Position numbers and translations under genes: made by a program. DNA of 64,000 bases from the IMG/VR virus record IMGVR_UViG_3300027126_000001; one strand, written 5' to 3'. The notes beneath the pieces are model-generated. The model saw only the letters and a list, made by a program, of their open reading frames with translations, had not been told where the DNA came from and searched no databases. Position 1 is the first letter of the stretch. Every line of letters starts with the position of its first letter. Below are positions 2,917 through 30,151 of this stretch, piece after piece. Source of the DNA: a virus (taxonomy: Duplodnaviria > Heunggongvirae > Uroviricota > Caudoviricetes).

Positions 2917-2919
2917 TCA

Positions 2920-3930: not shown

Positions 3931-3936
3931 ATCTTA

Positions 3937-4596: not shown

Positions 4597-4649
4597 TTGT
4601 TTTTACTTTTATTAATAAATATATGACTTTATACTTTCTAAAACAACCC

Positions 4650-5756
4650 CTAAATAGTAGGTGTACTCCCTGATACTACATACCCTAGTGCATCTGTGTA
4701 CACAATGTACCCTGTATCCTTTAACCTTACCTTTCCCTGTCTTGTCGGTGAAGGGCGACTTTTTTCTAATTCAAACATTCTTATAGGGTTAATTCTATAT
4801 AATTTTGTAGAATCGTTTATAGCACTCCTTACTGTATTATTCCAACCTCGTACTACCTCCAGGTTATAGTCATTGTTAGATGTAAGTCTTCTTATCGACA
4901 CTACTTTTATTATTTCCGAAGAAGTTCCTGCTTTTATTAAATCCCCTGGCTCGTAGAGTTTAAGTGGTCTGTTTGATCCTTCTGGGTAGACTATCAACTG
5001 GGAGGCAGATGGACTTGCTGCTGGGCTTATATAAAATAGAGGTGTTGTATCTAACGAATATAGTGGGTATGTTTGTTCACTTGTGTGAAAATATTCTAGA
5101 TACGACCTCTCTGACACATCTATATTTGCTATCTCCGTGTCAGGTGTCTGTATTGGGTAATAGGTTCCTTGTAAACTTGTACCTCTAATTGCGGAATCAA
5201 TAGTTGCGTATGTTAAATTATTTGTAGGTGTTCCTTCATACCTTGCATTAATCCACCCTGTATCTGAGTATGAACTGTCTTGTACGTCAGCAAATGTTAT
5301 TGATGTATTCTTTAGTATGTACTCCGAAGCTCTACTATTTTGTGCTGTATTTAAAGTTACGTTATAGTCACTCACGTAGAAACTCCCTCCTCGTATATTT
5401 GGTAATAGAATAACCTCACCATCCTGCACTGTCTCATTTTCAGTAGGAGTGTACGTCACGTAGGGTTGAATATTCTTAGGTGTTACCTCAAAAAAGTAAT
5501 ACCTAAACGGTGTTGCTCCTCGAATAACTCTAGAGGTTATTACTAATTCCACAGTTGCTCCGGGATCATTATCTACCGGTAGTGTTATTGTCTGTGTTTG
5601 AGCAAGAATATTCCTTACCTCGCTACCTTCATTATCTAAAAAGGGAACTGTAACACCTAGTACTGTTATAGGTGCACTATCTGTGCACCATATATTAACT
5701 CCTTCCGGGTATAGGTCTGCTATTTCGAGAAACTCCTGTTGTGTTAGTGTTGCCAT
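4650..5756 (-). CDS. Virion structural protein (hypothetical)
   Basis: 368-aa ORF in the structural operon. Confidence 0.4.
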   Translation of the reverse strand: MATLTQQEFLEIADLYPEGVNIWCTDSAPITVLGVTVPFLDNEGSEVRNILAQTQTITLPVDNDPGATVELVITSRVIRGATPFRYYFFEVTPKNIQPYVTYTPTENETVQDGEVILLPNIRGGSFYVSDYNVTLNTAQNSRASEYILKNTSITFADVQDSSYSDTGWINARYEGTPTNNLTYATIDSAIRGTSLQGTYYPIQTPDTEIANIDVSERSYLEYFHTSEQTYPLYSLDTTPLFYISPAASPSASQLIVYPEGSNRPLKLYEPGDLIKAGTSSEIIKVVSIRRLTSNNDYNLEVVRGWNNTVRSAINDSTKLYRINPIRMFELEKSRPSPTRQGKVRLKDTGYIVYTDALGYVVSGSTPTI

Positions 5757-5785
5757 TGTTTATTCTGTTTGTATACAGTATTTTA

Positions 5786-8700: not shown

Positions 8701-9736
8701 GGTCTTGGTAGTACGTAATACTTCCTGTAGTACCTAAAGAAGATGTCGTAACTGCTTGAACGTTTGCAATCTGTGTATTATACGACTGTATTAGGTCTAG
8801 CTTGTACTTAAAATTCAATAACCTCTCTTGTGCAGATGAAAAATGTACAAAATTACTGTAATCGTTATGGTCAATACTTAATTGTACCCCTTTACTATTC
8901 ACTAATGAATACAGCTCGTTAGTTGTATTTGTAATAGGCAGACTTAGAAGAGTATCATAGGTACAGTAATCTGTAGGTATTACGTTTTCGTCTGCTAAAT
9001 CTAGATTGAAATTTGGAGATCTTAGCTGTAGTGCTGATTCTACCTCTGTTTCAAAAGTACTTGTTACTTCATATACGGTACTGTCACTTACAAGCTCTAC
9101 TATACGTAATGTAGATTTCTCTACGATATCCTCTAATAGTGGTTCATATAATTTAACGACCACTACTGTGTCGTCCCCTTCCTGTAGTGTATCTATATTT
9201 ACTCCTATAAGTAAATCGTTACTAAGTAGATTTACCCTAAATTCATTAAAGTATGATTGTGTCTCTAACTTTGTTTTTATAGAAGTTGTAAAGGTTGTTA
9301 ACTCTTCTGAGGTTAAATTGAAAGTTTTTAGTTTTAACTCTGTCCTATCTGGTGAGATTGAATCGATAAAAAACTCTACACTATCCCTACCTGTTGTATA
9401 TAGGTCATTTATGAAGTTGTAAAATAGCTTAACTCCTCCATTATCATACCCATACACCTTTACATCCTCTATAGGATCTATAGTTAATACTGATGCACCT
9501 TTCTTCCCTGCTGAAGCAGCGTTACCTAACTCTTTGTAATTTCTGTAGTCGTATTCACTCTCTTGAAGTTCTCCGGCAAGGTTGTAAATATGAAGTTCTA
9601 CTACATGTTCACTGCTATCAAATAACTGGTTTACCTGGAAGGTGTTTATCAAGTTAGTATCCTCTTGTGATAGAATTTCTACACTAGCTATGCTTTGAGG
9701 AGTGTCTTGATTGACTGTATATGTAATGTTTGTCAT
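5786..9736 (-). CDS. Large tail / baseplate-associated protein (host-specificity / fibre-like, 1316 aa)
   Basis: Uninterrupted 3.95-kb ORF downstream of the baseplate J/W-like genes. Size and position are typical of a central fibre or host-specificity protein. Confidence 0.45.
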   Translation of the reverse strand: MTNITYTVNQDTPQSIASVEILSQEDTNLINTFQVNQLFDSSEHVVELHIYNLAGELQESEYDYRNYKELGNAASAGKKGASVLTIDPIEDVKVYGYDNGGVKLFYNFINDLYTTGRDSVEFFIDSISPDRTELKLKTFNLTSEELTTFTTSIKTKLETQSYFNEFRVNLLSNDLLIGVNIDTLQEGDDTVVVVKLYEPLLEDIVEKSTLRIVELVSDSTVYEVTSTFETEVESALQLRSPNFNLDLADENVIPTDYCTYDTLLSLPITNTTNELYSLVNSKGVQLSIDHNDYSNFVHFSSAQERLLNFKYKLDLIQSYNTQIANVQAVTTSSLGTTGSITYYQDLVKGIVNNFDHYERFLYYESGSNSWPKTNSTKPYINDTTSGADTWFNSKLTVAATYDVTNTNILINSIPSYLRDDSSNASYITFIHMIGQHFDNMWIYAKGVSDKYDADNRLNFGVSRDLVAEVLKNFGVKLYTSNKSIEDLFSSFIGQPYQSGSEKITTYVTGSVTGSNTPIQPSSFDNYQREIYKRIYHNLPLLLKSKGTERGLRALINCFGIPSDILDVKTYGGRKVSTTPFYGDYQHYTSSLDKIRLDNTGSILTGSTLSGYTSIVKREYKYTDDLHTIEVGFSPTDNIDKFILDSGSIAISASIVAINTNIASGSIAQQVAAYSASINQIVTNYSTRVLADGGSIEDLENLSDIVWGLAIPAPTFTSTATSLSYEFTTIDEFLGNPQNLYESDYSGLNTVVEYITRDLDAYNVQDYVRLIKFFDNTVFKMVKDFIPARAVADTGVIIKPHLLQRSKAKSPTLQGTRPEYTASIDTGFIQGKSAGAYDSVTQGGVDGELNTNYTTYVQTLFGIGTTDAHLHQEARINGELAGGTIRVSNGELNSANLFKTPTFFTNPFDVTRWINAEGLCILNPYTTYTDVQGGIYYSSSNNTLYLNSGSWNSNNIYTGLSQNMEYEITSSNKPTGSFIFPFNTNNYANYTTHSLTASNEGVEGICTSSIKIQVAVCDIQTTEQFRQNVTNTNVYNLQNWFTIGSQNLPANINLNIVNNTNSNVVYNGLLSSAGAATITFTGAATNTYTLTVQDTKIPLTCTYNYPIAAGLCSVVTESKALIDRADWRLKKYVGTTDTTQVIPSSTVNNYGLARYFTGENPDTLSYRVEILDNYAFGSVLASTILRPPTDLEFEVTGQGEFGNGPYGGGLYKYSWRYGPQTSFPAITGNVALFKIEYTDIFLLTYPSQVDQEYIEGLTLRITALENEPECTPFVLIEPTSPPVADIRNYLCDNGQYAYSPQECITEDTGGDVPDRFS

Positions 9737-10074
9737 TATTGGTTAGCTGTTTCTAAATCTAAAATTTGCTGATTAGCCTGTAGTAGTTCGTCCCTTAACT
9801 GTGCGATTTCGTCAAGTAATGGCTGTATCTCTTCTGTACTTCTTTCGAAGTTTACTAGCTCTGAACTTTTCTTTATTAAGTATTCGTGAGAATCTGTTTC
9901 ACCCTCAACATCTATTACAAAGTAAAGTTTCTCATATAGTCTAAAAAACTCATCAACAGTATCAGGATCTTCTTCCGCTATAGGTTGTACGAAAGTATTA
10001 AAACTTCTATCTACTACTTTTTCAAACTCAACTGAATTATAAACTGTTTTCTGTATCTTTACGTCATTATCCAT
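9736..10074 (-). CDS. Small acidic coiled-coil protein (possible fibre assembly / chaperone protein)
   Basis: 112 aa. Shares nt 9736 with the downstream gene (ATGA-type overlap). C-terminal LRDELLQANQQILDLE heptad-like segment. Confidence 0.35.
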   Translation of the reverse strand: MDNDVKIQKTVYNSVEFEKVVDRSFNTFVQPIAEEDPDTVDEFFRLYEKLYFVIDVEGETDSHEYLIKKSSELVNFERSTEEIQPLLDEIAQLRDELLQANQQILDLETANQ

Positions 10075-11185
10075 TTCTAACTACTTTAAATACATTCTGA
10101 TTATCTACTACTGTGGTACTTCCGTCTAAAGTCGTTTTTATCAATATACGATAATATCTCTCAGGCTGCAAGCCATCCATGTATACATCGAAATACCCTC
10201 CTTGACTATCACAGCTTATCTTTGTAAATTTTGTATCAAAATCTATAATCATCTCTTCTGTATTTTCATCTCTTATTCCCCAATACGATCCCGAAGGTAA
10301 CGCATAGTTTGTTAGGTATATTGACGTAGTTGTGAAGGTTCTAATCGGATATTTGGGTTTAGCTGCTATTCTAAATCTCTGCTTACCTGTATTTACGTAC
10401 TTACCTGTATTATTAGTGATGTTAATAGTTGATATATTGTTTGAAAGAGTAGAGAGACTACCTGTACTGTACGAACTGTCATCCCACTTAAAATCTAAAT
10501 ATGGAGGATATATTGTGTTTGTATCTGCACTAAAATACTTCAACCTTATTGAAGAAGTCGTATTAAACTCTAGATTATTTGACAGTTTTAATATAACTCC
10601 GTTATTGGCAATCGTACCTGTTTTCCACAGTTTTACAGCTGGGGTTATGTTTATATCGATATCATATGTCGAGTTGATTGCATTTGATTGTGTGAATTCA
10701 AGACTTGTTGCTCCTGATCCTGTATACCATGTGCCTCCTCCTGGTTTTGTCGATATGTATGATGCAGTTACCCCTGTTGAATAGGTTGAGGTTGACCAAG
10801 GTGTCTCTAACCCTGTTTTTTGGTAGGTCCAAGAGACTCCTGATGTGTTTGTAGGAATATCCCCGTACTTTCCTGTACCGTTATCCCATCCCCCTACTGA
10901 ACTAGATACTGGGTATGCGTAGATTGTTGTGTCCACCGGTATTTGGTATGCATCTGCAAGATACAGCCCTAATGATGCACTGTAGTTATCATTCCCTATT
11001 TTATTGTTTACAATATCAGCTATTTCTGCAGAGCTAAACTGTACAAGTATTCGACTTGTTTCTCCTGTCCCTGTAATATCGTAATAACCTCCTAGCTCAA
11101 CTATCTCATCCAATCCTGCGTTAGATGTAGGAGTTTCACTAAAAATAAATGTATCTTTTTCGGGAAATATTCTGTATACTGCCAT
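10067..11185 (-). CDS. Baseplate-associated structural protein
   Basis: 372 aa, directly follows the baseplate-J-like gene (P2 gpI-like position). Confidence 0.35.
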   Translation of the reverse strand: MAVYRIFPEKDTFIFSETPTSNAGLDEIVELGGYYDITGTGETSRILVQFSSAEIADIVNNKIGNDNYSASLGLYLADAYQIPVDTTIYAYPVSSSVGGWDNGTGKYGDIPTNTSGVSWTYQKTGLETPWSTSTYSTGVTASYISTKPGGGTWYTGSGATSLEFTQSNAINSTYDIDINITPAVKLWKTGTIANNGVILKLSNNLEFNTTSSIRLKYFSADTNTIYPPYLDFKWDDSSYSTGSLSTLSNNISTINITNNTGKYVNTGKQRFRIAAKPKYPIRTFTTTSIYLTNYALPSGSYWGIRDENTEEMIIDFDTKFTKISCDSQGGYFDVYMDGLQPERYYRILIKTTLDGSTTVVDNQNVFKVVRNG

Positions 11186-11186
11186 G

Positions 11187-12986
11187 TTATAGTGTTGTTA
11201 TTCTTCCTTTAATATCTGTTGTTGGAAATTTTACCTCAAAAATCATAGGATCATATGAAGGGTATACCACATTGTTCCTAGTAGCTCCATTGATATCGTA
11301 TCCGTATTGTGAATAGTTTCCTCCTGTTAGGTTATTTACCTGTATCTTCTGTACTGTCTGTACCCCTGGTACCTGATCTAGTAATGTGTATACACTTGAT
11401 AGGTTTATTGGTTGATTTATATTCCATTTTTTAATACTGAAGTAGTCTTGAAGTAGAGTGTTACATTGTAGTAGTACGTCTCTACCTAAGAAGTTAGGTC
11501 GAACCACTACGTCATACTGCACCTCTATATTTACAATAAATGCATCCTTAATATTAATAGCATCTGTCAATATCATATACTCTGCTAAATACCTTTTCAG
11601 ATTATTCTTCAACGAAATTGGAGCTGTTGTAAGGTTGCTATTTAGATCGTATGCTAATGTATAAAGTGATAGTGATAGAGGATTACTATCTAATATACTA
11701 TCTGTACTTGAGTTTGGATTTGTTAACTGGTCCTGAGTTATATATACTTTGCTTACTGTTCCGTACTTTGCTGGTAGTGATAATGCTCTAACTGTATAAT
11801 CCTGTAAAGTTACTGCTCTTCCCTGTTCGTTAAACGCTCTTAAGGAGTTCTGTCTTAACTCTTCCACTGTATCTCCATCTCTTCCTCCTGTTGCTGCTTC
11901 GGGGTTATTAAATGTTAGCGAAGTTGTTGGATCAGCTATTGGGGTTAGTAAATTTGTAACAGTGTTTGCCGGTACATTTGAAGATACTCCTCCTCCTACC
12001 AAGTATTTGATTGTTAGAGTTGTATTTGAAGGAGCCAATCCATAAGTCTGTGTATGTAAGAAGTTAGAAGGATCGTATGCATAATCGATTCTAGAAATTC
12101 CTTGAGAAGTTCCTAATCCTACATTGGTTGGGTCCGGTGTCAATACACTATCATCTTGTCCTGTAATTCCTGCTCCAAACTGTATTTGCAGTTCTCCTGT
12201 TGAGTTAAATCTTGTTACAAATCTTCTAGGAACTTTTCGAAGTACCAAATTATACGGCACCAAACCGCTATCCGAGCTTGTGTTTTCGTCATCTACAAAT
12301 ATAGTATCTTGCCCTAAAAACGGTACTTCGTACCAGATATTACTAGCACTATCTGTAATTGATAAGATACCTACTACGTTTGTATCGTTAATATTTATTG
12401 TTTTAAATTTTTCTGCAGCTGTAATTTGCTGTGTGATTGTCTTTACTTCTCCTGAATATGCTTTTCTAGTTTTTGTTAGTCTGAACTGGTTTGGAGATGT
12501 TCCTGCTAAGGATTCTATTACTACTTCTGTCGGATCGTAGGAGCTTGAAAATGTAAAGTCTATAGGAGTATCTATATAGAATCTAGATTGACCTGATGTT
12601 GTTGAGCTTAGCTGTGTGCCTGCTGCTATTTGTAGGGCTTGTGACCAGTCTGGTTGACCTGTTACCGCACCTACAAGGTGTGATACTTCTATATCTACTT
12701 CAGAAACTGTTGTAACTTTAGGACGATATCCCATCATATACGCTAAGTTATAGAGATTTACAGGGTCCTTAGCATACTGTATATATGTTTCCTGTAATTG
12801 TAAATCTTGGTAGAAAGATAAAATATCTCCCACATAAGCTGCCATTTCTATAAACATCATACCTGGTGAGGTTGGTGTAAAGTCGTTGTATGTGTTTGGG
12901 AAATAATTCTTTGCGTACTCGATTAATTCAGATCTTAAATCTGTAAAATCTCTTCCTGTATATTTTATATCTCTATCTTGAGCCAT
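11187..12986 (-). CDS. Baseplate J-like (T4 gp6 / P2 gpJ family) protein
   Basis: 599 aa. N-terminus MAQDRDIKYTGRDFTDLRSELIEYAKNYFPNTYNDFTPTSPGMMFIEMAAYVGDILSFY is characteristic of the Baseplate_J family. Preceded by a gp25/W-like gene sharing nt 12986. Confidence 0.55.
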   Translation of the reverse strand: MAQDRDIKYTGRDFTDLRSELIEYAKNYFPNTYNDFTPTSPGMMFIEMAAYVGDILSFYQDLQLQETYIQYAKDPVNLYNLAYMMGYRPKVTTVSEVDIEVSHLVGAVTGQPDWSQALQIAAGTQLSSTTSGQSRFYIDTPIDFTFSSSYDPTEVVIESLAGTSPNQFRLTKTRKAYSGEVKTITQQITAAEKFKTININDTNVVGILSITDSASNIWYEVPFLGQDTIFVDDENTSSDSGLVPYNLVLRKVPRRFVTRFNSTGELQIQFGAGITGQDDSVLTPDPTNVGLGTSQGISRIDYAYDPSNFLHTQTYGLAPSNTTLTIKYLVGGGVSSNVPANTVTNLLTPIADPTTSLTFNNPEAATGGRDGDTVEELRQNSLRAFNEQGRAVTLQDYTVRALSLPAKYGTVSKVYITQDQLTNPNSSTDSILDSNPLSLSLYTLAYDLNSNLTTAPISLKNNLKRYLAEYMILTDAINIKDAFIVNIEVQYDVVVRPNFLGRDVLLQCNTLLQDYFSIKKWNINQPINLSSVYTLLDQVPGVQTVQKIQVNNLTGGNYSQYGYDINGATRNNVVYPSYDPMIFEVKFPTTDIKGRITTL

Positions 12987-13396
12987 TACTGTTCAAAGTT
13001 TATTAACAATTCGTCTTGTATATTTGTCATGTTTATGCTATAGTTTATATACAGTGTAAATGTACCTGTGTCCGGTGATGGTTGTGCTGTAATCTTATTT
13101 AATGTCACATTTGGAAACCATTTTGAAACACCTGCCCTTACAGCTTCCTTTACTCTTTCCGAGGTATCTTCTGTACTCTGTGCAAAAATGTATTGTCTAA
13201 GTCCTGCTCCCATTTCTGGATTAAGAAACCTCTCTCCTTCTTCTGTTAGGAAGAAATTTACTAGATTAGCTTTTATAGCTTCTCGAGTGGTGTAGGTTGT
13301 TGTGAACACCTGGTCTGATGTAAATGGAAGTCCCACTCCAACTCCAACACTTGGTTGTAAATCTAAAGGGTTTATTTGTTGAACTTGAAATGCCAT
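12986..13396 (-). CDS. gp25 / GPW-like baseplate wedge protein
   Basis: 136 aa, W-J gene order, overlapping stop/start at both ends (translational coupling). Confidence 0.45.
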   Translation of the reverse strand: MAFQVQQINPLDLQPSVGVGVGLPFTSDQVFTTTYTTREAIKANLVNFFLTEEGERFLNPEMGAGLRQYIFAQSTEDTSERVKEAVRAGVSKWFPNVTLNKITAQPSPDTGTFTLYINYSINMTNIQDELLINFEQ

Positions 13397-13788
13397 TATT
13401 CTCCGAATCTTGCTTTATCCTTCTCTACCGATGCTTTGTAAATTGCTCCTGCATTTTTTGCGAAACTCAAGGTGCTTAAATCTAATCCTGGTGCTGGTCT
13501 TGTTTGGAAACCTTCAATAGGATTCATCCCTAATCCAGGTGCTTGAACCATGTCTGAGGTTGCATTAACTAAATCTCTATAGGATTCTTGAGTCATAGAA
13601 GCTCTCGTTTCATTTAAGATATCCATAATCGGATCCCCTGTCCTTACAGTTTTTGCAACAGCAGGTCTATAATTGTCGTACCTGGTTATTTCTGCTACTA
13701 CCGGAGGTGTAGGAGAACTTCCCAACTCTTCCTGTAAAACTTCTCGTACTGCTTCCTTTATTAATTTTTTAAAAACATCTAACTTCAT
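13396..13788 (-). CDS. Hypothetical baseplate-module protein
   Basis: 130-aa ORF coupled to its neighbours. Confidence 0.35.
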   Translation of the reverse strand: MKLDVFKKLIKEAVREVLQEELGSSPTPPVVAEITRYDNYRPAVAKTVRTGDPIMDILNETRASMTQESYRDLVNATSDMVQAPGLGMNPIEGFQTRPAPGLDLSTLSFAKNAGAIYKASVEKDKARFGE

Positions 13789-13805
13789 ATTAATAAATAG
13801 TTATG

Positions 13806-14585
13806 TTATGGTAATTGATTATCTATTCTAAATTTTATCTCGTCTAGTAATACTTGTGTCGAGGAGCTAAATGATGGTTGCCCTCTTAGTACTACAATTC
13901 CTCTTCTATCTTTTGCAATAGCATACCTTCTCGGTGCTATTTGCGGTGAATTTGGGTCTTGAATAATTTCTAACTTGTAACCCTTATACTCGTAATCTGC
14001 ATCAGGAGTCCCTTCTGATCCAGTATTCTGTTTCGGTTGTGCTTGTGTTACTATTTTTGCTAGATCTGGGGATTGTTTACTACATTCCTGTATTGCTAAG
14101 TCTATTGCGTTCAGTCTATTTTTTAAACTTGCTAGTGTTGTTGCTACAGAATCTACTATACCCAATATCCCCCTTCTATCTGCTTCCAGTGTGTCCAGTA
14201 ATTTATTTAACCTAATTAAAGCATCACTATACTTTGTTAATATTTTTATTGGAATACCCAAACCTCCCGACATTGGCGGTATGATTGCGGTAGGAATTGG
14301 TATATTCGTAATAATCCTAATAATTGTCCTTACAGTACGTATAGTCGAATCAAGCCTCTTTGCTGTCGCTTTCAGTGAATTTATCCTTTTTTCAAAAGAG
14401 TTTATGACTTTAAGTAGGTTGTTTCTCTGCTTTATAATACTCTCTAAATCCTTTCCCGAAGGGCATTGGTTTGTAAATTTTGATAGTATTTCTAATACCC
14501 TGCCCTGTACTTGTGCTGATATTTTACCCTGTATAGCACCTACCTGTCTTGCTATTATTCCTGATATTTGCGGTACTATTGCCAT
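13806..14585 (-). CDS. Hypothetical alpha-helical structural protein
   Basis: 259-aa ORF. Confidence 0.35.
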   Translation of the reverse strand: MAIVPQISGIIARQVGAIQGKISAQVQGRVLEILSKFTNQCPSGKDLESIIKQRNNLLKVINSFEKRINSLKATAKRLDSTIRTVRTIIRIITNIPIPTAIIPPMSGGLGIPIKILTKYSDALIRLNKLLDTLEADRRGILGIVDSVATTLASLKNRLNAIDLAIQECSKQSPDLAKIVTQAQPKQNTGSEGTPDADYEYKGYKLEIIQDPNSPQIAPRRYAIAKDRRGIVVLRGQPSFSSSTQVLLDEIKFRIDNQLP

Positions 14586-15739
14586 TATTCTGTAAATACT
14601 TTTTTAGATTGAAATATCTTAAATTGAGCTTTTAGCGACTGTACTGTTGCTTTTAGTGCCGGCCCTGTTGCGTTTAACTGGGTTACTGGCCCTGCTCCAA
14701 CTGCAGAAGCTGTTGACATTGCATCTGCTACTGATGATAAGGTATCTAATAGTGCACCTAACCAATTCTCTAGCTGTTTACCTAAAACTACCGGTTGCTG
14801 TACACTTGGTGAAGCAGTCCTTGCTTTTTCTCCTAGTAGTATCTTTTTTGCATCTACACAGAAGTAATCTGTTGCGTCTAGGTTTAATGTCTTAGCATTC
14901 AATCCTACCGACTCTTTAGCTGATAGTAATATACTTTCCTCTTTTGCATTGAAGTACAGTCTTCCTCCATTAACTATTACTTGATTGCCTTTATATTGAT
15001 CTGCTGTTTTAGGTTCGGTATTATAAGATTTCCTTTTTGTATTAGCAGACGTTAACGGTACTTTATGGTCTGACATCATGTAAATTGAGTTTACATCTCT
15101 ATCTATATCTTCTACAATCGAATCTATACCATTTTTTGTCTTTATCTGACCGTTTCTTATTATTGTAAGGGGTTTTCCGTTATTCGATACTTCTGTCCAC
15201 GGATTCTTTTCAGTCTTATAACCTCCCATTCGGATAGACTGCCCTTGCCTGCCCTGTATTATCACATCTCCAGGAAACGGATAAAGAGGGTTAATATCTT
15301 TTAACTCTGGAATGTTCCTACCTATAGGGGATTGGAAGTCTACGCCTTGTGTTGGAAGTGCATTGTGATGTGTACTCCCCCATATATTCACTACACTTGA
15401 GTAGTAATTTAGAACTTCACTACTATTTTCCTGGAAGTCTGGTGTTGGACCAACTACTATTACTACGATTTCATTAACAAAAGGAAAATGCTTCACTGCA
15501 CTACTAAGTGGGTATGCATGTGGCAGTATTGCTTCCTTATCTACAGGTGTATTGATGTCCTGGTAGATTATTGAACCGATTGGTAGTTTATTCCCTTGAG
15601 CATCGTATAGTGTAGTAGTTTCGTCTAGTACTATATTTACAACTCTACCAAATACCGGTGTAGGTTGAGAATTACCTCCTCCACCTACTCCTCTTCCGGC
15701 ACTACTTATTGTATTCCCAAGAAAATAATTACCTGCCAT
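14585..15739 (-). CDS. Baseplate hub / central spike-like protein (tentative)
   Basis: 384 aa. N-terminal Gly-rich stretch then GRVVNIVLDETTTLYDAQGNKLPIGSIIY, which resembles the gp5 / VgrG OB-fold start. Position upstream of the W/J-like genes. Confidence 0.3.
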   Translation of the reverse strand: MAGNYFLGNTISSAGRGVGGGGNSQPTPVFGRVVNIVLDETTTLYDAQGNKLPIGSIIYQDINTPVDKEAILPHAYPLSSAVKHFPFVNEIVVIVVGPTPDFQENSSEVLNYYSSVVNIWGSTHHNALPTQGVDFQSPIGRNIPELKDINPLYPFPGDVIIQGRQGQSIRMGGYKTEKNPWTEVSNNGKPLTIIRNGQIKTKNGIDSIVEDIDRDVNSIYMMSDHKVPLTSANTKRKSYNTEPKTADQYKGNQVIVNGGRLYFNAKEESILLSAKESVGLNAKTLNLDATDYFCVDAKKILLGEKARTASPSVQQPVVLGKQLENWLGALLDTLSSVADAMSTASAVGAGPVTQLNATGPALKATVQSLKAQFKIFQSKKVFTE

Positions 15740-16086
15740 TACTCTTCTTCTTTTTTAATATCTTTCCCGATTTCCTGACTTTGTTCCATTAGTTTAGCAA
15801 GCTCTTCTGGGTCAAAGAAATCTGCTTCAGATCCTTTTCCTCCAGATTCTAACCTCTGTACTAAAGCTACCATCTTAATAAGGTGTTCATCATTCTTTAC
15901 TCCAACTTCTAAGTACTCTTTTATCATAGGAACAACTAAAGTTGCGTCTCCTATGTTTTCTACAAGAGGCTTTAACTCTCCAATAAGAGCATTAATCTGT
16001 TTTTCCTTATTTTTTGAATTATCGTAAATTTCTTTTAGAACATCAGAGACGGTCTTTTTCCCGAATATTGTAGTATCTAATCCCAT
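15739..16086 (-). CDS. Small acidic hypothetical protein
   Basis: 115-aa ORF. Confidence 0.35.
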   Translation of the reverse strand: MGLDTTIFGKKTVSDVLKEIYDNSKNKEKQINALIGELKPLVENIGDATLVVPMIKEYLEVGVKNDEHLIKMVALVQRLESGGKGSEADFFDPEELAKLMEQSQEIGKDIKKEEE

Positions 16087-16119
16087 GCTGTATTTATTTT
16101 ATAAATATCTTCGAATACA

Positions 16120-16842
16120 TTATTGAATTTCATACCCTGCTTCCTGATATACCTTATATGTCTTATAAAATTTTTCTTTAAGTCTGGAGATTACTCTAGT
16201 AAGAGTGGGTGTTTCGCAGTCTGTCATCTCCCGTATGTAAATGTATAAAGCTTTCTTCTTAAAAATATCTAAATCATGTCTAGTTTTAAATAACGTTAAA
16301 ATTGCATCAGCGACAACCTGTTCTGATTGTTTTTGAAAATCCTCCTCTAAAGTGTTGTAACAATTCTCAACAAACATATCTACTACTTTAGCTAGTTTTA
16401 TTTCCCTAGAGTATTCCTCAATATCACCTGTTTCGTACGAATCTTCCATTTCTTCAAAAGATCCTACTTGTTTCAACTTCTTGTAGTTCTTATTACTGTA
16501 ATTAATAAGCCACCTCTTCACTATTGTTTGAAAATAGGAAAACGCCTTAGCCCCGTTACTGGGGTCAAATCTGTGTAGTTTTTCCTCTACAAGCATACTT
16601 ACTATATCTAACTTTAAATCCTCAATGCTATCTACATCTAGGTAGTAGAACTTAAAAGTATGTATAATGTTTTCTGCTAATTTGTAGAGTGGTAAATAAA
16701 TCTCTTTTTTAAATACCTCATCCCTGTACATAGGGTCAGAGGATGCATTGTATCTTACTATTGCATCCTCTGTTCCTTGTGTAAAGTAGTAATTGTCTTT
16801 ATTCTGTGGTTTTGCCATAATCATCTGGTAGACGGTAGGCAT
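16120..16842 (-). CDS. Sigma-70-family RNA polymerase sigma factor (phage-encoded, probably the late-gene sigma)
   Basis: 240 aa. HRFDPSNGAKAFSYFQTIVKRWLINY matches sigma-70 region 2.2-2.3 (KFDPxxGxKFSTYAxxWIRxxI). The C-terminus ETPTLTRVISRLKEKF resembles a region-4 helix-turn-helix. Confidence 0.55.
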   Translation of the reverse strand: MPTVYQMIMAKPQNKDNYYFTQGTEDAIVRYNASSDPMYRDEVFKKEIYLPLYKLAENIIHTFKFYYLDVDSIEDLKLDIVSMLVEEKLHRFDPSNGAKAFSYFQTIVKRWLINYSNKNYKKLKQVGSFEEMEDSYETGDIEEYSREIKLAKVVDMFVENCYNTLEEDFQKQSEQVVADAILTLFKTRHDLDIFKKKALYIYIREMTDCETPTLTRVISRLKEKFYKTYKVYQEAGYEIQ

Positions 16843-17092
16843 TTATAGTATCTTGTATTTCTTTCATAAAGTTAAAGAAAACTCCGACTTCATCGTCAGA
16901 CCTAAAAGTGCCTTTCTCATCTAATTGTTCAACATAAATTTTTGATTCACTAATAAGATACGCAACCTTTCTTAAATAACCTACTTGGTACTCTATAATA
17001 TCTTCTTGCTTTGTCACCTTACGGTGTAAGTTCCAAGTAGTATATCCGAATACTAAAACCAATATTACTAAAATAACTGTTAATATTATCAT
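16799..17092 (-). CDS. Small membrane protein (N-terminal TM helix)
   Basis: 97 aa beginning MIILTVILVILVLVFGY. Confidence 0.35.
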   Translation of the reverse strand: MIILTVILVILVLVFGYTTWNLHRKVTKQEDIIEYQVGYLRKVAYLISESKIYVEQLDEKGTFRSDDEVGVFFNFMKEIQDTINAYRLPDDYGKTTE

Positions 17093-17093
17093 A

Positions 17094-17831
17094 TTAAATT
17101 TCTTTTACTAATCCCATTAATCCCTGAGATCCGTTTACTTTCTTACCTGTTGAAGAGGTTGTTTTCTGCACCTTAGGTGTGGAAATTCCTCCTGAAGATT
17201 TCCATGTATCGTATTCTACTTTAGAAGCTAGAAAGTCTGCTTGATGTAAAATATATACTAGATTTGTTCTGAATTTAGAATCTGGATTAAAGGATAGGTA
17301 GTAGGGTTTATTTACATCGTCATATAATCCATCATGTAACTTTATAGCTAAATACTCTTTCTCATTCATAGCTATTCCATTTTGTTGAAGTATGAAAAGA
17401 GAACGGTCTTGAATAAGCATAAAAGACAAGTCTTTATTATGAACATACTCCTCACCTAACTTATCCTTCCTCCAGACATCTGTTTGAGGGAGGTAATTAG
17501 GCTGTCCTCTAAACCCTATTTTTCCTAAATCATGATTAAGAGCTGCAAATACTAATTCCTCATCTGTAAAATCAATAGTAGCTCCCATAGCCTCCCATAA
17601 CTCTTTTGACTTAAAAGCACAATGAACAACACGGTTTACGTGGTCAATATACCCTCCGGGAAAAGCATTATGAAAGGAAGGTTTACCGGAAGCAGGAGCA
17701 AGTATCATTTCCTCCGCCAAAGACTCATAAAGAGATTTTAACTTCTCTTTACGATCTCCGGTGATAAAAGTATCTAATATTCTTAGATGCTTATCCCAAT
17801 TACTTTGTATCTGTTCTGCCGAAAGATTCAT
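17094..17831 (-). CDS. HD-domain phosphohydrolase
   Basis: 245 aa. H...HD motif (AALNHDLGKIGF) and a downstream LHDGLYDD. Confidence 0.55.
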   Translation of the reverse strand: MNLSAEQIQSNWDKHLRILDTFITGDRKEKLKSLYESLAEEMILAPASGKPSFHNAFPGGYIDHVNRVVHCAFKSKELWEAMGATIDFTDEELVFAALNHDLGKIGFRGQPNYLPQTDVWRKDKLGEEYVHNKDLSFMLIQDRSLFILQQNGIAMNEKEYLAIKLHDGLYDDVNKPYYLSFNPDSKFRTNLVYILHQADFLASKVEYDTWKSSGGISTPKVQKTTSSTGKKVNGSQGLMGLVKEI

Positions 17832-18004
17832 TAGTCTTGGTGCTCTGTGTTTAGTAATGTTTGAATATCACTTACCATTCCTAAAAGCTCCTCTACTTTT
17901 GTATAAGCGATAGCTTGTTCGTTCCTATGGATATGATATCCCATTTTTTTAATCTCTGCTTCTAATCGTTCCAACTTTTGTTGAAATAAGTCTTTATTTC
18001 TCAT
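17831..18004 (-). CDS. Small hypothetical protein (57 aa), not in the ORF track
   Basis: ATG at 18004-18002. Translates to MRNKDLFQQKLERLEAEIKKMGYHIHRNEQAIAYTKVEELLGMVSDIQTLLNTEHQD. Its stop overlaps the HD gene start as TAATG. A degenerate cassette lies upstream. Confidence 0.35.
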   Translation of the reverse strand: MRNKDLFQQKLERLEAEIKKMGYHIHRNEQAIAYTKVEELLGMVSDIQTLLNTEHQD

Positions 18005-18100
18005 CTTTTCTTTTTTTATTAATATTAGTTATTTTTATTTATTATACTATTAATTACCTAATAATGGCTAAGTTATGAACTTTTTTTTTAAGAAGCAACT

Positions 18101-18754
18101 TTACTGCTCAAACACTACTTTTAACTCTTTAACTACTGTCTGCTTATTCTCTCCGAAAGTGACATTAATGTATATAGTTGCTGACTCCCCTATAAAATCT
18201 TCAAAAAACGCCATTGATTGCTGAGGGGTGTAGGTGTATCTGGAATTAGTGCAGAAGTACGACTGTACTACCGACTGATTGGCATAGTAATCTGTATGGG
18301 GTTGAATTGTGTAACCTACTAAATTCATTATGGTAGTCTGTCCTGAAAGTTGCGGAAATGTGTAGGTTTGTGTACCTACTGCGATAGGTGTATCCATTTG
18401 ATTACTTGACCACAACCCTTGGTAGGAATATACAGGGTATGTCCAGGTTACATTTCCCGGCAAGTAGAAGAAATTAGAATCAAAAGATGTAATAACTAAC
18501 GGGACATTGTTAATTACATACCGAGAATCTAAAGGAGATAATTGCCCTTTCACTGTAAAATAGTTTAATCCAGCATGTTTTATATGCCAAACCCCTTGCC
18601 CATCTTGGTAAGTTCCAGGATGCCCTTGAGTATCTACCCAGAAAGTGCCGTAACAATCCCCGGATAAGCACACACTAGGCTCTATTTCAGGAGTGGAACA
18701 ACTAAGTACGAATAAAGAAAGTAATAAAAGGAATAAAGTTTTTAACTGTTTCAT
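18101..18754 (-). CDS. Secreted lipoprotein (start taken at the internal Met)
   Basis: MKQLKTLFLLLLSLFVLSCSTPE is a signal peptide with a lipobox (LSC). The longer ORF to 18808 is probably an over-extension. A degenerate cassette lies at 18775-18820. Confidence 0.5.
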   Translation of the reverse strand: MKQLKTLFLLLLSLFVLSCSTPEIEPSVCLSGDCYGTFWVDTQGHPGTYQDGQGVWHIKHAGLNYFTVKGQLSPLDSRYVINNVPLVITSFDSNFFYLPGNVTWTYPVYSYQGLWSSNQMDTPIAVGTQTYTFPQLSGQTTIMNLVGYTIQPHTDYYANQSVVQSYFCTNSRYTYTPQQSMAFFEDFIGESATIYINVTFGENKQTVVKELKVVFEQ

Positions 18755-18881
18755 AACATTTTTATTTTGATTGTACCTAAATATATGAAGAAAGACGGAG
18801 AGGAGCAACTATTTTATAAGTTATTTTCAAAGAATCGCCGCGCAATTATTTTATATATCCTACCCGGATACCTATTAAGTT

Positions 18882-19586
18882 TTAGTAAATTACGCATTCC
18901 CCAACGGTAAACAATGCACCTACCTCTCGAATCTTATCAAAAGCCTCAAAAGGAGTAACCTTAAAAAATTCTCTTTTACCTCCTCTATCGGAAGAAACCC
19001 TTACAGAACTAAAATGCTTGTGAACGGCCTTCTCCACTTTTAAAGCCGAACCTTTTTTCAAAGGAAGAGCAAATTTTGGAACCCACTCTTCAACCGTAGC
19101 TGTAGCGTTTATTGCCGTGACTCTCCTAGGAACGTCATGAATGGTCATTCCTATCTTAACGAGTGAAGTATACCCGGGATTAACCAGAACGTAAACATAC
19201 TCTATATCATCGGTAGATTTCTCTTTTATCTTAGAATTCTCTATACCGTGGAAATACCTCCAGGAATATGTATTGGTATCTTGATCTACCTGTCCTTCGG
19301 ATACCTCTATAAGGTATCTTGCCGAAAGAAAATCAAGGAGTTTACCTGGGGATATATGTCTGTGTTTGGATTGAAGGGTAGTAAATGCTTCTTTCCATTT
19401 TTTTCCTACCTTGGGGTAGGCTAGAACAGACTCTGGTGAAGAATCAACAATTGTAATCTCTCCTACTAATTCAAGAGACATGGCCTCTGCCATACTTATT
19501 TTATCTCTAAACATAATTGTTTTGAATTTTAGTTGAAAAAATCCCTTACTACTAAGTTGATAACACTCCCTGCAATTATAGGCCAT
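18882..19586 (-). CDS. T5orf172 / GIY-YIG-superfamily domain protein
   Basis: 234 aa. YVYVLVNPGYTSLVKIGMT...RRV matches the T5orf172 (Mug113-like) domain consensus. Confidence 0.45.
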   Translation of the reverse strand: MAYNCRECYQLSSKGFFQLKFKTIMFRDKISMAEAMSLELVGEITIVDSSPESVLAYPKVGKKWKEAFTTLQSKHRHISPGKLLDFLSARYLIEVSEGQVDQDTNTYSWRYFHGIENSKIKEKSTDDIEYVYVLVNPGYTSLVKIGMTIHDVPRRVTAINATATVEEWVPKFALPLKKGSALKVEKAVHKHFSSVRVSSDRGGKREFFKVTPFEAFDKIREVGALFTVGECVIY

Positions 19587-22072: not shown

Positions 22073-22115
22073 GATACTATATGTTTTAATTATTGATACC
22101 TAAAGATAAGAAATA

Positions 22116-22129
22116 GCCCCCGAAGGGGC
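22116..22129 (-). terminator. UUCG-tetraloop GC hairpin inside a cassette (gene-end terminator/insulator); equivalents at 25299-25312, 25627-25640, 26244-26257, 28538-28551 and 38924-38937
   Basis: GCCCC-CGAA-GGGGC on the plus strand, which is GCCCC-UUCG-GGGGC on the transcript, followed by a U-rich tract. The 5' arm retains the AGTTGCC -33 element. Confidence 0.45.
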
Positions 22130-22137
22130 AACTCTTT

Positions 22138-24775: not shown

Positions 24776-24866
24776 AATGTTATATGTTTTAATTATTGAT
24801 ACCTAAATATATGAACTTTAACTTTATGAGGCAACTATTTTAACAATTATTTTTAATTTATTTTGA

Positions 24867-24942
24867 TGTTGTGGAAGGATTCGAACCTTCGTCCTATCGG
24901 CCCCCTCGGACCGATCGCTTTCGCCGCTTCAGCTTCACAACA
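24867..24942 (-). tRNA. tRNA-like element with a canonical acceptor stem and T-arm but a non-canonical anticodon arm
   Basis: Minus strand reads TGTTGTG-AA-GCTG...GAAGG-TTCGAAT-CCTTC-CACAACA-T. A 7-bp acceptor stem, a perfect GGTTCGAATCC T-arm and a D-loop GG are present. The anticodon arm ATCGGT/CCGAGGGG/GCCGAT gives an 8-nt loop, and no CCA is encoded. Downstream lies the hairpin AAGCCC-N8-GGGCTT. Confidence 0.4.
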
Positions 24943-25255: not shown

Positions 25256-25326
25256 GATTTTATATGTTTTAATTATTGATATCTAAAGATAAGAAAAAGG
25301 CCCCGAAGGGCCAACCCTTTTGTCAA

Positions 25327-26210: not shown

Positions 26211-26267
26211 GTTTTAATTATTGATATCTAAAGATAAGAAATAGCCCCCGAAGGGGCAACTATTTTA

Positions 26268-28494: not shown

Positions 28495-28561
28495 GATATA
28501 TGTCGTTTTAATTATTGATACCTAAAGATAATGAATTGGCCCCGAAGGGCCAACCCTTTTG

Positions 28562-28837
28562 TTAATTATTTAAGTAATTAGCTTTGTAATTTGTTACTAT
28601 TACCTCAAATTGAGCTAGACAATCTACAGCTGATTTACCTTTTAAGCCATAGTATTGTTTTAGATCTTTTAATTTAACCCCTCTACAGCTTAATCCTTTT
28701 GACATTAATTTAAGGTTAAAATGATGAACTGATAATTGATAACCAAAGTAATTAACATTACCATTAGGAGTTGATACTGTAGGAGTGTTTAAAGTTCCTT
28801 CCTGTGCTGCTGTAAGAGCTTGTTCAAATTGTGTCAT
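28562..28837 (-). CDS. Small hypothetical protein (array gene)
   Basis: 91 aa, cassette upstream. Confidence 0.45.
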   Translation of the reverse strand: MTQFEQALTAAQEGTLNTPTVSTPNGNVNYFGYQLSVHHFNLKLMSKGLSCRGVKLKDLKQYYGLKGKSAVDCLAQFEVIVTNYKANYLNN

Positions 28838-28970
28838 AATATACTATGTTTTAATTATTGATACCTAAAGATAGTAAATTATCTAATACGAGGCAACTTT
28901 TATTCCATATTATTTTCCTATTAAAACAAATACTGCCATAGATAAAATATATTAAAAAACTTTGTGAATT

Positions 28971-29010
28971 AGTTGCTAGATAGAATCATTCTTCGTATCT
29001 TTAGGTATGT
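28971..29010 (+). promoter_or_regulatory. Plus-strand copy of the cassette promoter (AGTTGCTAG, 16 nt, TATCTTTAGGTATG) with no ORF downstream
   Basis: The -33-like 9-mer is identical and the spacing to the -7-like TAnnTTTAGGTAT box is the same as in the ~25 minus-strand cassettes. It points rightward into a GC-rich non-coding stretch that ends at the 29117-29145 terminator. Confidence 0.5.
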
Positions 29011-29011
29011 T

Positions 29012-29156
29012 AGAAGGGAATAAAGGGCCTGGCACTGAAAGACTGTCGGAAGAGTAGACGGTCCGGTACGCCTATTTCTGTAGTTGGTAATACCTAGTAC
29101 CTGGTGGTAAAAAAAGAAGGGCCCTGTTGGGAGCCCTTTTTCTTATGCTTGTCTTT
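29012..29156 (+). ncRNA. Candidate ~140-nt small RNA (promoter-to-terminator unit on the otherwise empty plus strand)
   Basis: Bounded by the plus-strand cassette promoter and the hairpin AAGGGC-N10-GCCCTT followed by TTTTTC. GC content is far above the surroundings (GGGCCTGGCAC...GACGGTCCGGTACGCC). Only a 16-codon ORF is possible. Confidence 0.4.
29109..29145. terminator. Bidirectional rho-independent terminator
   Basis: An A-run (29110-29115), then a GC hairpin (29117-29138), then a T-run (29137-29141). Confidence 0.55.
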
Positions 29157-29262
29157 TCTGTCGTAGGTCTTTTTGCTCTTATACACCTTGTGCTGGGAGG
29201 CTGCCCATCTCTCCTGGAGAGTTACCTGAATTGTTTTCATTACTTGCTGAGGTTTGTTTCTA

Positions 29263-29472
29263 TTAAATATCCTCTTCTAGGAAGAAAGGGTCCCCTGAGG
29301 TATCAAATGTAATAAATCCTTCTCTATTAGTATAATAGTCATTAGGTCCAGTACTCATAAAGAATAGAGTTTCTTCCTCATCATTCCTCCCTACATAGTG
29401 AGCTTTATTTCCTCTCTTATCCAAAGTATATTCAACCCCTACAACTAAATCATCTCTTTCAATTTCTCTCAT
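29263..29472 (-). CDS. Small hypothetical protein (last array gene)
   Basis: 69 aa, cassette upstream (29473-29545). Confidence 0.45.
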   Translation of the reverse strand: MREIERDDLVVGVEYTLDKRGNKAHYVGRNDEEETLFFMSTGPNDYYTNREGFITFDTSGDPFFLEEDI

Positions 29473-29574
29473 ATCGTATATGTTTTTAATTATCTATACC
29501 TAAAGATAAGAACCATTGGCCATATAAGCAACTTTTTTATAGGCTTTTTTTACCCCCGGAGGGGGACAGGAAAC

Positions 29575-29730
29575 GGGTAACTAGAACGGGTCTCAACCGG
29601 GTCTCTTAACGGGTCACTAGACGGGTAACAAAACGGGTATCTAAATCGGGTATCTCCTTACACTCTGCATTATCTGCCTATAGGGACAGGTACCAAACGG
29701 GTATCTGAAATGGGTATCTGCTTACACTAT
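29575..29730. repeat. Iteron array A: ~9 direct copies of (A)ACGGGT(A/C), spaced 11-13 bp
   Basis: cgggt occurs at 29583, 29595, 29606, 29619, 29630, 29642, 29655, 29706 and 29720. Two copies of the longer unit GGGACAGGnAAACGGGTA and two copies of GGGTATCTSCTTACACT are also present. Confidence 0.7.
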
Positions 29731-30002
29731 ATAGGATAGTTTCTTCCTATTATAGAAAAAAACTATTAGGGAGACACATACCCCTCATTTTACCTATCCT
29801 TATTCTACCATCCCTTCTCTATCGTTTTACACATCGTATATACTATACAGTACCTTTTCATACCTACTACCATATGTCTTTATACTCTTTACTAGGTTTT
29901 ACTACTCTTTATGTTTAATCAGAGTCCTTAACCTTTTACTATGTATCTCAGCAGTTCTCCCTATGTCTCTCCTTATATCTCTCCAGCTCTATATGTATGT
30001 AT

Positions 30003-30095
30003 ATTCGGGTAATAGGCCGGGACAGAAACGGGTAATTGAATGGGTATCAAATGGGTATCGGACCGGGTTTGTAGACGGGTCTCTTAACGGGTTTC
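30003..30095. repeat. Iteron array B: ~8 direct copies of the same (A)ACGGGT motif, same orientation as array A
   Basis: cgggt/tgggt occurs at 30006, 30029, 30042, 30053, 30064, 30076 and 30088, and GGCCGGGACAGAAACGGGTA recurs. The two arrays are separated by a ~270-bp tract that is C/T-rich on the plus strand. Confidence 0.7.
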
Positions 30096-30151
30096 TATAT
30101 AATATTCTCTATAGGATTGTCCATTGTCCTTATAACGTCTTCTTTATTATC

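Follow-up and report, generated by a model that had tools for sequence, protein, structure and literature searches.

A stretch of 64,000 nucleotides (nt) of tailed-phage DNA (IMG/VR record IMGVR_UViG_3300027126_000001, Caudoviricetes; hereafter the window) carries a recurrent cassette promoter in front of small minus-strand genes, and one copy of this promoter, at 28971-29008, is turned onto the plus strand. What is transcribed from this inverted copy, and is the product a peculiarity of this phage? A previous examination of the DNA letters (the sequence-only reading) had proposed a phage small RNA. As far as they could be checked, the predictions of that proposal held, and it is supported by the conservation of the unit, the absence of a conserved open reading frame (ORF) and a covariation, specific to the plus strand, in a hairpin termed P2, and the locus can very probably be regarded as a genuine small RNA gene belonging to a new family. 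Rather than an isolated case of an inverted promoter, it represents, in this phage, an RNA family of phages that is uncatalogued and apparently abundant. Its predicted product is a non-coding RNA of ~135-140 nt, occupying ~29005-29145 on the plus strand, which would start from a consensus copy of the early-cassette promoter of the phage and end at a GC hairpin followed by a U-run. The features of the locus are the following:

28971-29008, plus strand: promoter, with a -33-like AGTTGC at 28971-28976, a 19-nt spacer and a -7-like TATCTTTAGGTAT at 28996-29008
29009-29025, plus strand: variable 5' leader, GUUAGAAGGGAAUAAAG, able to pair 3' of the core and thereby close the fold
29026-29069, plus strand: core, consisting of GGCC, the hairpin P2, the near-invariant GGAAGAGUAGAC at 29048-29059 and the closing strand GGUCCGGUAC at 29060-29069
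29080-29100, plus strand: lineage-specific 3' hairpin, GUAGUUGGUAAUACCUAGUAC, with 13 distinct versions among relatives
29109-29146, both strands: bidirectional terminator (A-run, GC hairpin at 29117-29138, U-run), with the predicted 3' end of the small RNA at ~29141-29146
29094-29240, minus strand: convergent basic ORF of 48 amino acids, MKTIQVTLQERWAASQHKVYKSKKTYDRKDKHKKKG..., with an ArfA-like K-x-K-K-x-Y-x-R-K-x-K-H motif (KSKKTYDRKDKH)

Promoter, terminator and predicted transcript

The plus strand reads AGTTGCTAG at 28971-28979, followed by a 16-nt spacer and TATCTTTAGGTATG at 28996-29009, as had been described. The pattern AGTTGC-N19-TATCTTTAGGTAT, with up to three mismatches allowed, matches 34 times in the window against 0.03 matches expected by chance; 33 of these are on the minus strand and front small ORFs, and the only plus-strand match, at 28971-29008, contains no mismatch. 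Transcription is predicted to begin at ~29004-29010 from the known geometry of Bacteroidetes TAnnTTTG promoters, placing the expected 5' end of the small RNA a few nt past TATCTTTAGG. Several of the minus-strand cassette promoters (e.g., 22096-22133, 25279-25316, 26224-26261 and 28518-28555) hold a GC hairpin, CCCCTTCGGGG / GGCCCTTCGGGGCC, within the spacer between the -33 and -7 boxes, which places the terminator of one gene inside the promoter of the next.

Downstream of the plus-strand promoter, the GC content at 29000-29200 rises to 45-46% with a positive GC skew, against a genome background of ~30%, in agreement with the unusually high GC noted before. The terminator hairpin pairs AAGGGC with GCCCUU at 29117-29138; the A-run lies at 29109-29115 and resumes at 29117-29118 within the stem, and the T-run covers 29137-29141. 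A terminator scan called only the minus-strand version (8 pairs), and the plus-strand half of the bidirectional terminator proposed earlier is read from the sequence as two blocks of 6 and 2 pairs separated by a C.A mismatch, after which comes UUUUUCUU.

The sole plus-strand ORF of the unit has 16 codons, from the ATG at 29007 to the TAG at 29057, as the sequence-only reading had stated, and it is not conserved, its ATG being gone in relatives including loci L007 and L014. The surrounding 425-bp gap (28838-29262) had been considered gene-free. This holds for the plus strand, on which no conserved ORF was found, but not for the minus strand, where the conserved 48-amino-acid ORF has its 3' end over the terminator. 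Both this ORF and the extension of the core's family far beyond this phage had been overlooked. The possibility raised at the outset, that the GC-rich stretch might form the 3' part of an element on the minus strand, does not hold for the core: only the last ~50 nt of the small RNA, from 29094 onwards, are common with the 3' end of the ORF, and these comprise the last bases of the 3' hairpin, an A-rich linker and the terminator.

Conservation and fold of the core

The nearest isolate is Flavobacterium phage vB_FspM_immuto (hereafter immuto), a 160-kb Immutovirus with ~78% identity to the window at the locus. The two sequences align at the promoter, at a ~65-nt 5' segment (...GGGCCUGGC..UGAAAGA..GUCGGAAGAGUAGACGG.CCGGUACGCC), at the terminator, which is also present in immuto, and at the convergent ORF; the middle part is longer by 59 nt in immuto. 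The conservation expected in related phages was thus found, as the whole unit from promoter to terminator is kept in immuto and in ~50 loci grouped here as class A, with variation in the 3' modules and in the length and sequence of the leader. A search of IMG/VR with a 17-mer of the core gave 17 true homologues, all sharing one layout: a promoter of the Bacteroidetes type is followed by a short and variable leader and the core, then optionally by a hairpin of 21 nt, 0-6 units of 18 nt or both, and finally by a GC hairpin and the convergent ORF. Of 32 distinct class A instances, 31 retain the promoter box ahead of the core. The window copy has the 21-nt hairpin and zero 18-nt units, and some loci (L005, L009 and L076) contain two tandem promoter-plus-core units.

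The distribution of the core was surveyed with two complementary scans, one anchored on its 5' half and the other on its 3' half. The core was detected in at least 120 metagenome contigs (lakes, Baltic and Tara Oceans). IMG/VR contributed a further 119 loci, on contigs between 4 and 340 kb long, which makes ~135 for this database, and the two sources together have more than 250 loci. In the 185,579 species genomes the core pattern occurred in two contigs only, both of them metagenome bins, and among 50,697 isolate phage records it was confined to the immuto phages. Comparison with Rfam 15 gave no hits over the whole window at gathering thresholds, only terminator-hairpin noise at 28800-29300 with E<=10 (best 21.8 bits against a threshold of 50), and nothing at the motif in twelve class B loci (defined below) with E<=1, so that the covariance-model check points to no known family. 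ARAGORN detected no transfer RNA (tRNA) or transfer-messenger RNA (tmRNA) at 29000-29150, and there was no Rfam match to either at that place. A full-text literature search with the core sequence returned unrelated primer matches only, and searches on structured RNAs of phages and on decoys found no description of the motif. A structured-RNA survey that also used IMG/VR (Fremin et al. 2023, PMC10690425) lists 10,006 unnamed candidates, to which no function is attached, and the motif may be one of them. The family is new, uncatalogued and phage-specific; its kind (a phage small RNA with a convergent antisense arrangement) is familiar, and the family, its architecture and its distribution are new.

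The core measures ~45 nt and consists of GCC, a variable hairpin, the block G(G/A)AAGAGU-NN-AC and a closing strand. The consensus of 213 distinct instances reads as a variable 5' closing strand, (G/A)GC(C/G), (UG), P2, GGAAGAGU(A/G)(G/U)AC and a closing segment that is specific to each class:

Class A, after GAC: GG(G/U)CCGG-UAC, in immuto-like phages including the window
Class B, after GAC: UCC-NN-CC-UAC, in most loci
Third subclass, after GAC: CGGA(C/G)AGCGCUCC, in few loci

A covariance model (R1) built from an alignment of family members matches 29020-29075 on the plus strand with 53 bits, the window sequence being part of its training set, and any other match in the window reaches at most 10 bits. 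In the window, P2 spans C29029-G29049 with the loop GAAAG at 29037-29041, and GGCCUG at 29026-29031 could pair with CGGUCC at 29059-29064.

Pairing of P2 is retained across 100 distinct P2 sequences from the 213 instances, with lengths between 9 and 26 nt and with loops as diverse as UGAAAUA, UUCG, UACG and AACACCA. Its mean folding energy is -4.8 kcal/mol compared with -1.9 kcal/mol for shuffled sequences. Covariation was assessed in an ungapped alignment of 82 diverse members, with 500 shuffles and with slid registers as controls. Pair 13-27 occurs as four pair types (AU in 42 members, GU in 27, GC in 10 and CG in 3), pair 14-26 as three (including CG in 54 and UA in 26) and pair 15-25 as five. 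Double-sided changes numbered 61 against 23.5 in the shuffles, none of the 500 shuffles being as high, and 82.5% of the P2 cells were paired compared with 34-52% in the slid registers. G-U pairs are frequent, with U11-G29 in all 82 members, GU at 13-27 in 27 and UG at 16-24 in 42. Because these pairs become A.C mismatches on the opposite strand, the plus strand is indicated as the functional RNA. The folding check that accompanied the original proposal was borne out by comparison across the family and not by the fold of the single sequence, the energy of which is unexceptional (z = -1.35).

Pairings that would close the fold include AUAAGG/CCUUAU, GUACAG/CUGUAC, AUAG/CUAU, GGGCG/CGCCU and GGAGCUGUC/GACAG-CG-CUCC, and in class A GGCCUG with CGGGCC and a 5' GGUA(C/U) with GUAC(C/U) near the 3' end. 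The closing helix appears to be real but variable, with moderate confidence given the one-sided changes and the differences between subclasses. A single P1 helix valid for all classes was sought; the mutual information of the flanks was low, and two registers each paired 55-63% of the cells.

Within ~45-50 nt, the core combines helices that are free in sequence with a junction whose nucleotides are fixed. Small ribozymes and aptamers have a similar build, and the core could accordingly be catalytic or ligand-binding, as a new class of self-cleaving ribozyme or as a small-molecule aptamer or sponge. Its association with phages, sometimes in tandem or in multiple copies, and the closing helix that abuts the U-run in several loci would be compatible with this explanation. 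It is nonetheless considered improbable, as the core has no similarity to Rfam ribozymes or riboswitches, no cleavage site could be proposed and the junction bases differ between classes A and B. Comparisons by eye with known structures (hammerhead and hairpin ribozymes, signal recognition particle RNA, Y RNA, the tetrahydrofolate riboswitch, 5S loop E and segments of 16S and 23S ribosomal RNA) were rejected, as they gave only short words in common, attributable to chance.

A conserved 12-mer that is probably unpaired, in a unit organised from promoter to terminator like a small RNA gene, is likewise typical of seeds, and GGAAGAGUAGAC might base-pair in trans with a host or phage messenger RNA (mRNA). 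Target prediction, suggested with the original proposal and confined to the window, lent no support to such a role: the complement GTCTACTCTTCC is not enriched, with 4 matches at up to 2 mismatches against 5.9 expected. The two variable positions of the block (A/G and G/U) are incompatible with a fixed target, because they cannot both pair one constant base, and the block is for this reason better read as a loop tip than as a seed. Moreover, the fixed nucleotides of the core lie on both strands of the junction, and a target conserved across phages with different promoter types would need to be nearly universal. A seed function is thus held to be as improbable as a catalytic or ligand-binding one.

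The modules between the core and the terminator are far more variable. The 13 versions of the 3' hairpin, one of them GUACUAUGUAAUACAUACUAC in L011, show compensation in part, at pairs 6-16 and 7-15. In relatives it is accompanied or replaced by tandem 18-nt units, C-UUAAAG-N4-GCUUUAA, each forming an A/U-rich hairpin of 6-7 bp or a DNA palindrome. Among 45 class A tails, 14 have no unit, 1 has one, 3 have two, 5 have three, 16 have four, 5 have five and 1 has six; phages that are nearly identical in other respects can differ in this number, and the 4-nt loop is variable as well (CAAA, UGAU, CUGUUA, GAAA and others). The units of immuto (L001), four in number, are located at ~3215-3300, and because of them its small RNA is predicted to measure ~200 nt. 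These arrays resemble phage pseudo-ToxI arrays in being tandem hairpin repeats (0-6 copies) whose copy number varies between near-identical phages. They differ from these arrays in their length (18 nt against ~36 nt), as they do from the tandem repeats of ~34-45 nt in type III antitoxins, which an adjacent endoribonuclease toxin processes, and they have no toxN-like neighbour, and within the window there are no 18-nt units or tandem repeats of them. The loops were also considered as mimics of anticodon loops, given the likeness of CUGUUAC to tRNA-Asn, and this was rejected since the commonest loop, GCAAAGC, does not have U33.

Genomic settings and the convergent ORF

The unit runs antisense to every surrounding gene in the window and in class A, and it converges on a small ORF. 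Other phages with Bacteroidetes-type promoters have stand-alone units, in which an upstream terminator, a TAnnTTTG box, a leader of 10-30 nt and the core are followed by a U-run 6-8 nt past CCUAC; a separate TAnnTTTG promoter serves the next gene, and the unit may lie in either orientation relative to its neighbours. The 78-kb contig IMGVR_UViG_3300025887_000015 (L289) contains five units within 20 kb (2204-19456), each with its own TATCTTTG promoter and U-run, a dosage that fits stoichiometric titration. The multi-copy and tandem arrangements suggest that dosage matters. Two of the five units are identical duplicates ~2 kb apart, and short (A/G)TGTTAAA repeats occur after the U-run in this contig and in similar loci. 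The class A and stand-alone settings argue for a trans-acting small RNA. A riboswitch or other cis-acting leader was not indicated in these two settings, as the genes downstream of the unit lie on the opposite strand in the first and have their own promoter in the second.

The main class B group is found in the early region of uncultured phages of ~40-65 kb, with the core on the gene strand. Sigma-70-like TTGATAATAT boxes, TTGATAATATAA promoters and GTATAGCA/TGCTATAC octamer repeats surround the motif (e.g., in L039 at 3104-3700, L101 and L036), often with a -10 box 5-7 nt upstream of the core or a terminator-like hairpin directly upstream. A conserved early protein (...FVVRKSWLGRNQVITF...YNHD, also given as ...PPIERANFVVRKSWLGRNQVITF...YNHD) is encoded ~300 nt upstream of the core in 144 of 201 loci. 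This protein and seven other conserved neighbours gave no PHROG or Pfam match above the cut-off, and no partner protein common to the class A and class B neighbourhoods was found.

The position of the core, at or ~5-30 nt from the transcription start in many loci (e.g., with the -10 box 5-7 nt before GGCC), recalls promoter-proximal elements that modify RNA polymerase in cis, such as put of HK022. The transcript would then read through, antisense, into the early genes toward repeat clusters (iterons) located further downstream. Conservation across different promoter types would be expected of a polymerase ligand. However, the loci with Bacteroidetes-type promoters have a U-run straight after the motif and downstream genes with promoters of their own, and there is nothing in the sense direction to express in the window, which makes an element of this kind very improbable.

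The convergent ORF is a real gene to judge from its substitutions, which concentrate at third codon positions (392, against 184 at first and 119 at second positions). The 35 distinct versions found beside class A RNAs have in common MKTIQVTLQERWAAS.H.V.KSKK.Y.RK.KH..KG. The last ~15 codons, which encode the variable C-terminus (...GSQQGPSFFTTRY), are the antisense reading of the terminator and 3' hairpin of the small RNA, and this overlap of ~50 nt, from 29094 to ~29145, is conserved in the 35 distinct pairs. The hairpin at 29117-29138 and the minus-strand U-run come before the stop codon of the ORF at 29094-29096. Class A relatives with a detected hairpin have the start of the minus-strand U-run 10-42 nt ahead of the stop, the exception being L281, for which the ORF call of 108 amino acids is over-extended.

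A database search returned 44 homologues of the ORF, one of them named 'alternative rescue factor ArfA' by the Joint Genome Institute. Comparison of the ORF-family profile with all Protein Data Bank chains at E<=10 gave ArfA chains only, over the ribosome-binding segment of ArfA, with E=0.32-2.6. The ORF had no match to Pfam ArfA (PF03889) or in NCBIfam, and only a sub-threshold match to Pfam DUF7230 was obtained (best E 0.0012). In a profile search of 1.8 billion proteins, 133 clusters of small proteins were found, and the ten of these that were scanned matched DUF7230 below threshold or nothing, and never Pfam ArfA. Homology to ArfA is therefore suggestive at most. We know of no use of ArfA in the host lineage, Flavobacteriia.

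ArfA and BrfA are reported to be made from mRNAs that are cut by an in-frame hairpin or terminator and are hence under tmRNA control, and E. coli arfA to be also covered by an antisense RNA from mscL (PMC3989581, PMC6881298, PMC10070815). The phage locus would resemble E. coli arfA and B. subtilis brfA in three respects: VxKxKK..Y.RK.KH of the ORF is similar to ArfA residues 30-45, a hairpin with a U-run lies inside the predicted reading frame, in class A relatives as in the window, and a convergent transcript would run over it. It differs in the weakness of the homology, in having no match to Pfam ArfA and in that most members of the phage family outside class A stop normally. The protein family extends beyond class A to 80 IMG/VR loci and 133 clusters at 50% identity, with the RNA motif within 10 kb in only three further contigs, so that the RNA and ORF families are not obligatorily linked. 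Members are phage proteins of 36-60 amino acids with the consensus I.VT.QEIW.ATRPNVYKNKKKYTRK.KHK. Some longer ones end in ...(P/S/D)FF... past the basic motif, which resembles ...PSFF in the window, where FF is the translated U-run.

Given the overlap, the RNA might have as its main job to control the ArfA-like gene in cis by antisense pairing, as lambda OOP does with cII, or as in the par pair of RNA I and RNA II. Pairing at the terminator and 3' end would trigger cleavage of the mRNA or stabilise it, and the 5' core would be only a domain for stability or folding. A convergent overlap of at least 45 nt and a shared bidirectional hairpin in all 35 distinct class A pairs, together with the strong promoter, are in line with such control. 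Nevertheless, the core is the most conserved part of the RNA and the overlapping 3' part the least conserved, and the core occurs in ~200 loci without such an ORF nearby, as well as in the stand-alone units composed of promoter, core and U-run. Cis-antisense control as the main job is thus unlikely.

The 77-nt OOP RNA is similar to the unit in having its own promoter and terminator, running against the surrounding operon, overlapping the 3' end of a small gene by ~50 nt and lying beside iterons, but it has no family-wide structured core, whereas the conserved part here is the non-overlapping 5' domain, present in hundreds of phages without the partner gene. The par (fst) system and other type I toxin-antitoxin systems with 3' overlap share the convergence of a small ORF and a small RNA on one bidirectional intrinsic terminator, and here too the RNA is convergent with, and complementary to, the 3' end of the ORF mRNA. 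The product of the ORF is not a membrane peptide as in those systems, being basic, hydrophilic, rich in lysine and arginine and devoid of a hydrophobic segment; in addition, there are no 5' direct repeats, and the core exists without the ORF.

Proposed role and neighbouring features

The favoured explanation combines a stand-alone small RNA gene, a core recognised by a partner and an antisense role at the ArfA-like gene, and as a whole it is given slightly less than an even chance. The family core would form the 5' two-thirds of the RNA, with the closing helix and the arbitrary-sequence hairpin framing the invariant purine-rich G(G/A)AAGAGU-NN-AC and a few junction bases. The invariant junction or loop of the folded RNA would be recognised by a conserved partner, either a host protein or ribonucleoprotein or a small ligand, and the RNA would act as a highly expressed decoy, titrator or cofactor and not as a linear antisense seed. 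This mode of action by decoy or partner recognition is tentative and, taken by itself, rather doubtful. In the immuto lineage, the shared terminator would cut the ArfA-like mRNA before its stop codon and produce a non-stop message, and the 3' ~50 nt of the RNA, perfectly complementary to this mRNA, could base-pair with the very element that would make it non-stop. The cis-antisense effect is likely to be a second, lineage-specific layer.

Decoy RNAs such as CsrB/RsmZ, 6S RNA, bacterial Y RNAs and adenovirus VA RNA would be comparable in being small, abundant and structured, in acting through shape and a few fixed nucleotides and in sometimes being multi-copy; the core has no sequence or structural similarity to them, and the comparison is by analogy only. 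To our knowledge, phage small RNAs with known roles are few, and nearly all of them come from enterobacterial models.

Several observations weigh against the favoured explanation. Only P2 covaries cleanly, and the closing helix shifts register between subclasses, so that no one fold suits both class A (...GAC-GGGCCGG-UAC) and class B (...GAC-UCC-GNCC-UAC); the energy of the single-sequence fold is not distinctive on either strand. Both collecting scans held GGAAGAGU fixed, and part of its invariance is thus imposed by the search, although pattern-free covariance-model matches in independently fetched loci still show GGAAGAGU, plus one GAAAGAGU variant. Most class B copies are in early operons without an obvious terminator, where a cis role is possible. 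Finally, the ArfA assignment of the ORF is weak, the best E value being 0.32 in the profile comparison and the probability 9% (E=0.0035) in the hhalign comparison with ArfA.

An alternative is that the core is a new phage RNA fold, used in several host groups, that mimics the elbow of tRNA or tmRNA or else serves as a self-cleaving ribozyme or ligand sponge; this is considered unlikely. As an elbow mimic, a T-arm-like hairpin beside a D-loop-like GGAAGAGUAGAC would titrate a universal factor that binds tRNA or tmRNA, such as SmpB, or a defence nuclease that targets tRNA, and in this lineage it would take over ribosome rescue together with the ArfA-like factor. GGAAGAGUAGAC resembles the D-loop of class II tRNAs, GGAAU(U)GGUAGAC, a likeness that is a lead and not membership; one phage tRNA-Tyr reads GGCGGAAUGGUAGACGC.

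Under the favoured explanation, the fold, which is apparently confined to phages and common in lake, Baltic and ocean viromes, would owe its interest to its conservation at the nucleotide level across different promoter types, which implies a partner important enough to constrain ~20 nucleotides. Consensus early promoters and multi-copy arrays predict strong expression by design. The RNA would thus be a handle for finding a new interface between phage and host, and it can be tested directly in the cultured representative of the lineage, Flavobacterium phage immuto on strain LMO8. The link to a putative non-stop ArfA-like message also raises the idea that large aquatic phages may manipulate ribosome rescue.

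The gap at 29534-30150 contains two clusters of (A/G)ACGGGT(A/C) in the same orientation, at 29562-29722 (~10 copies) and 30006-30091 (~7 copies), with a spacing of 11-13 nt. They flank a stretch of ~280 bp that is AT- and pyrimidine-rich and has further short repeats and palindromes, and in all class A loci of sufficient length they occur 0.5-0.7 kb and 0.9-1.15 kb past the core. The pair is a candidate replication origin or regulator-binding array. The small RNA unit could in turn be a replication element acting at the DNA level, as a primer or R-loop RNA, or as a protein site of this origin, considering that the (A/G)ACGGGT clusters (12-nt spacing) keep the same orientation at 0.5-1.15 kb in every such locus, that the RNA strand is G-rich and that AT-rich repeats follow in relatives. 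The strand-specific G-U covariation, which denotes a folded RNA, the terminator that separates the RNA from the iterons, the lack of a GC-skew inflection at the locus and the class B and stand-alone copies without these iterons all speak against it, and of the explanations considered this one is the least credible.

Every genomic G of immuto is replaced by 7-(formylamino)methyl-7-deazaguanine (PMC10516641). If the window phage is likewise modified, its promoters and candidate origin operate on fully modified DNA; no link between the modification in immuto and the small RNA was found. A tRNA-like gene is located at 24866-24942 on the minus strand, with 48 bits to Rfam tRNA when the region was searched alone; it was not listed in the whole-window Rfam run at gathering thresholds. 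ARAGORN labels it 'tRNA-???' and assigns it an anticodon of four bases. The acceptor stem is normal and a GGUUCGAAUCC T-arm is present, and the anticodon arm can be represented by a stem of 8 bp with a GAGG tetraloop, which would leave no anticodon loop.

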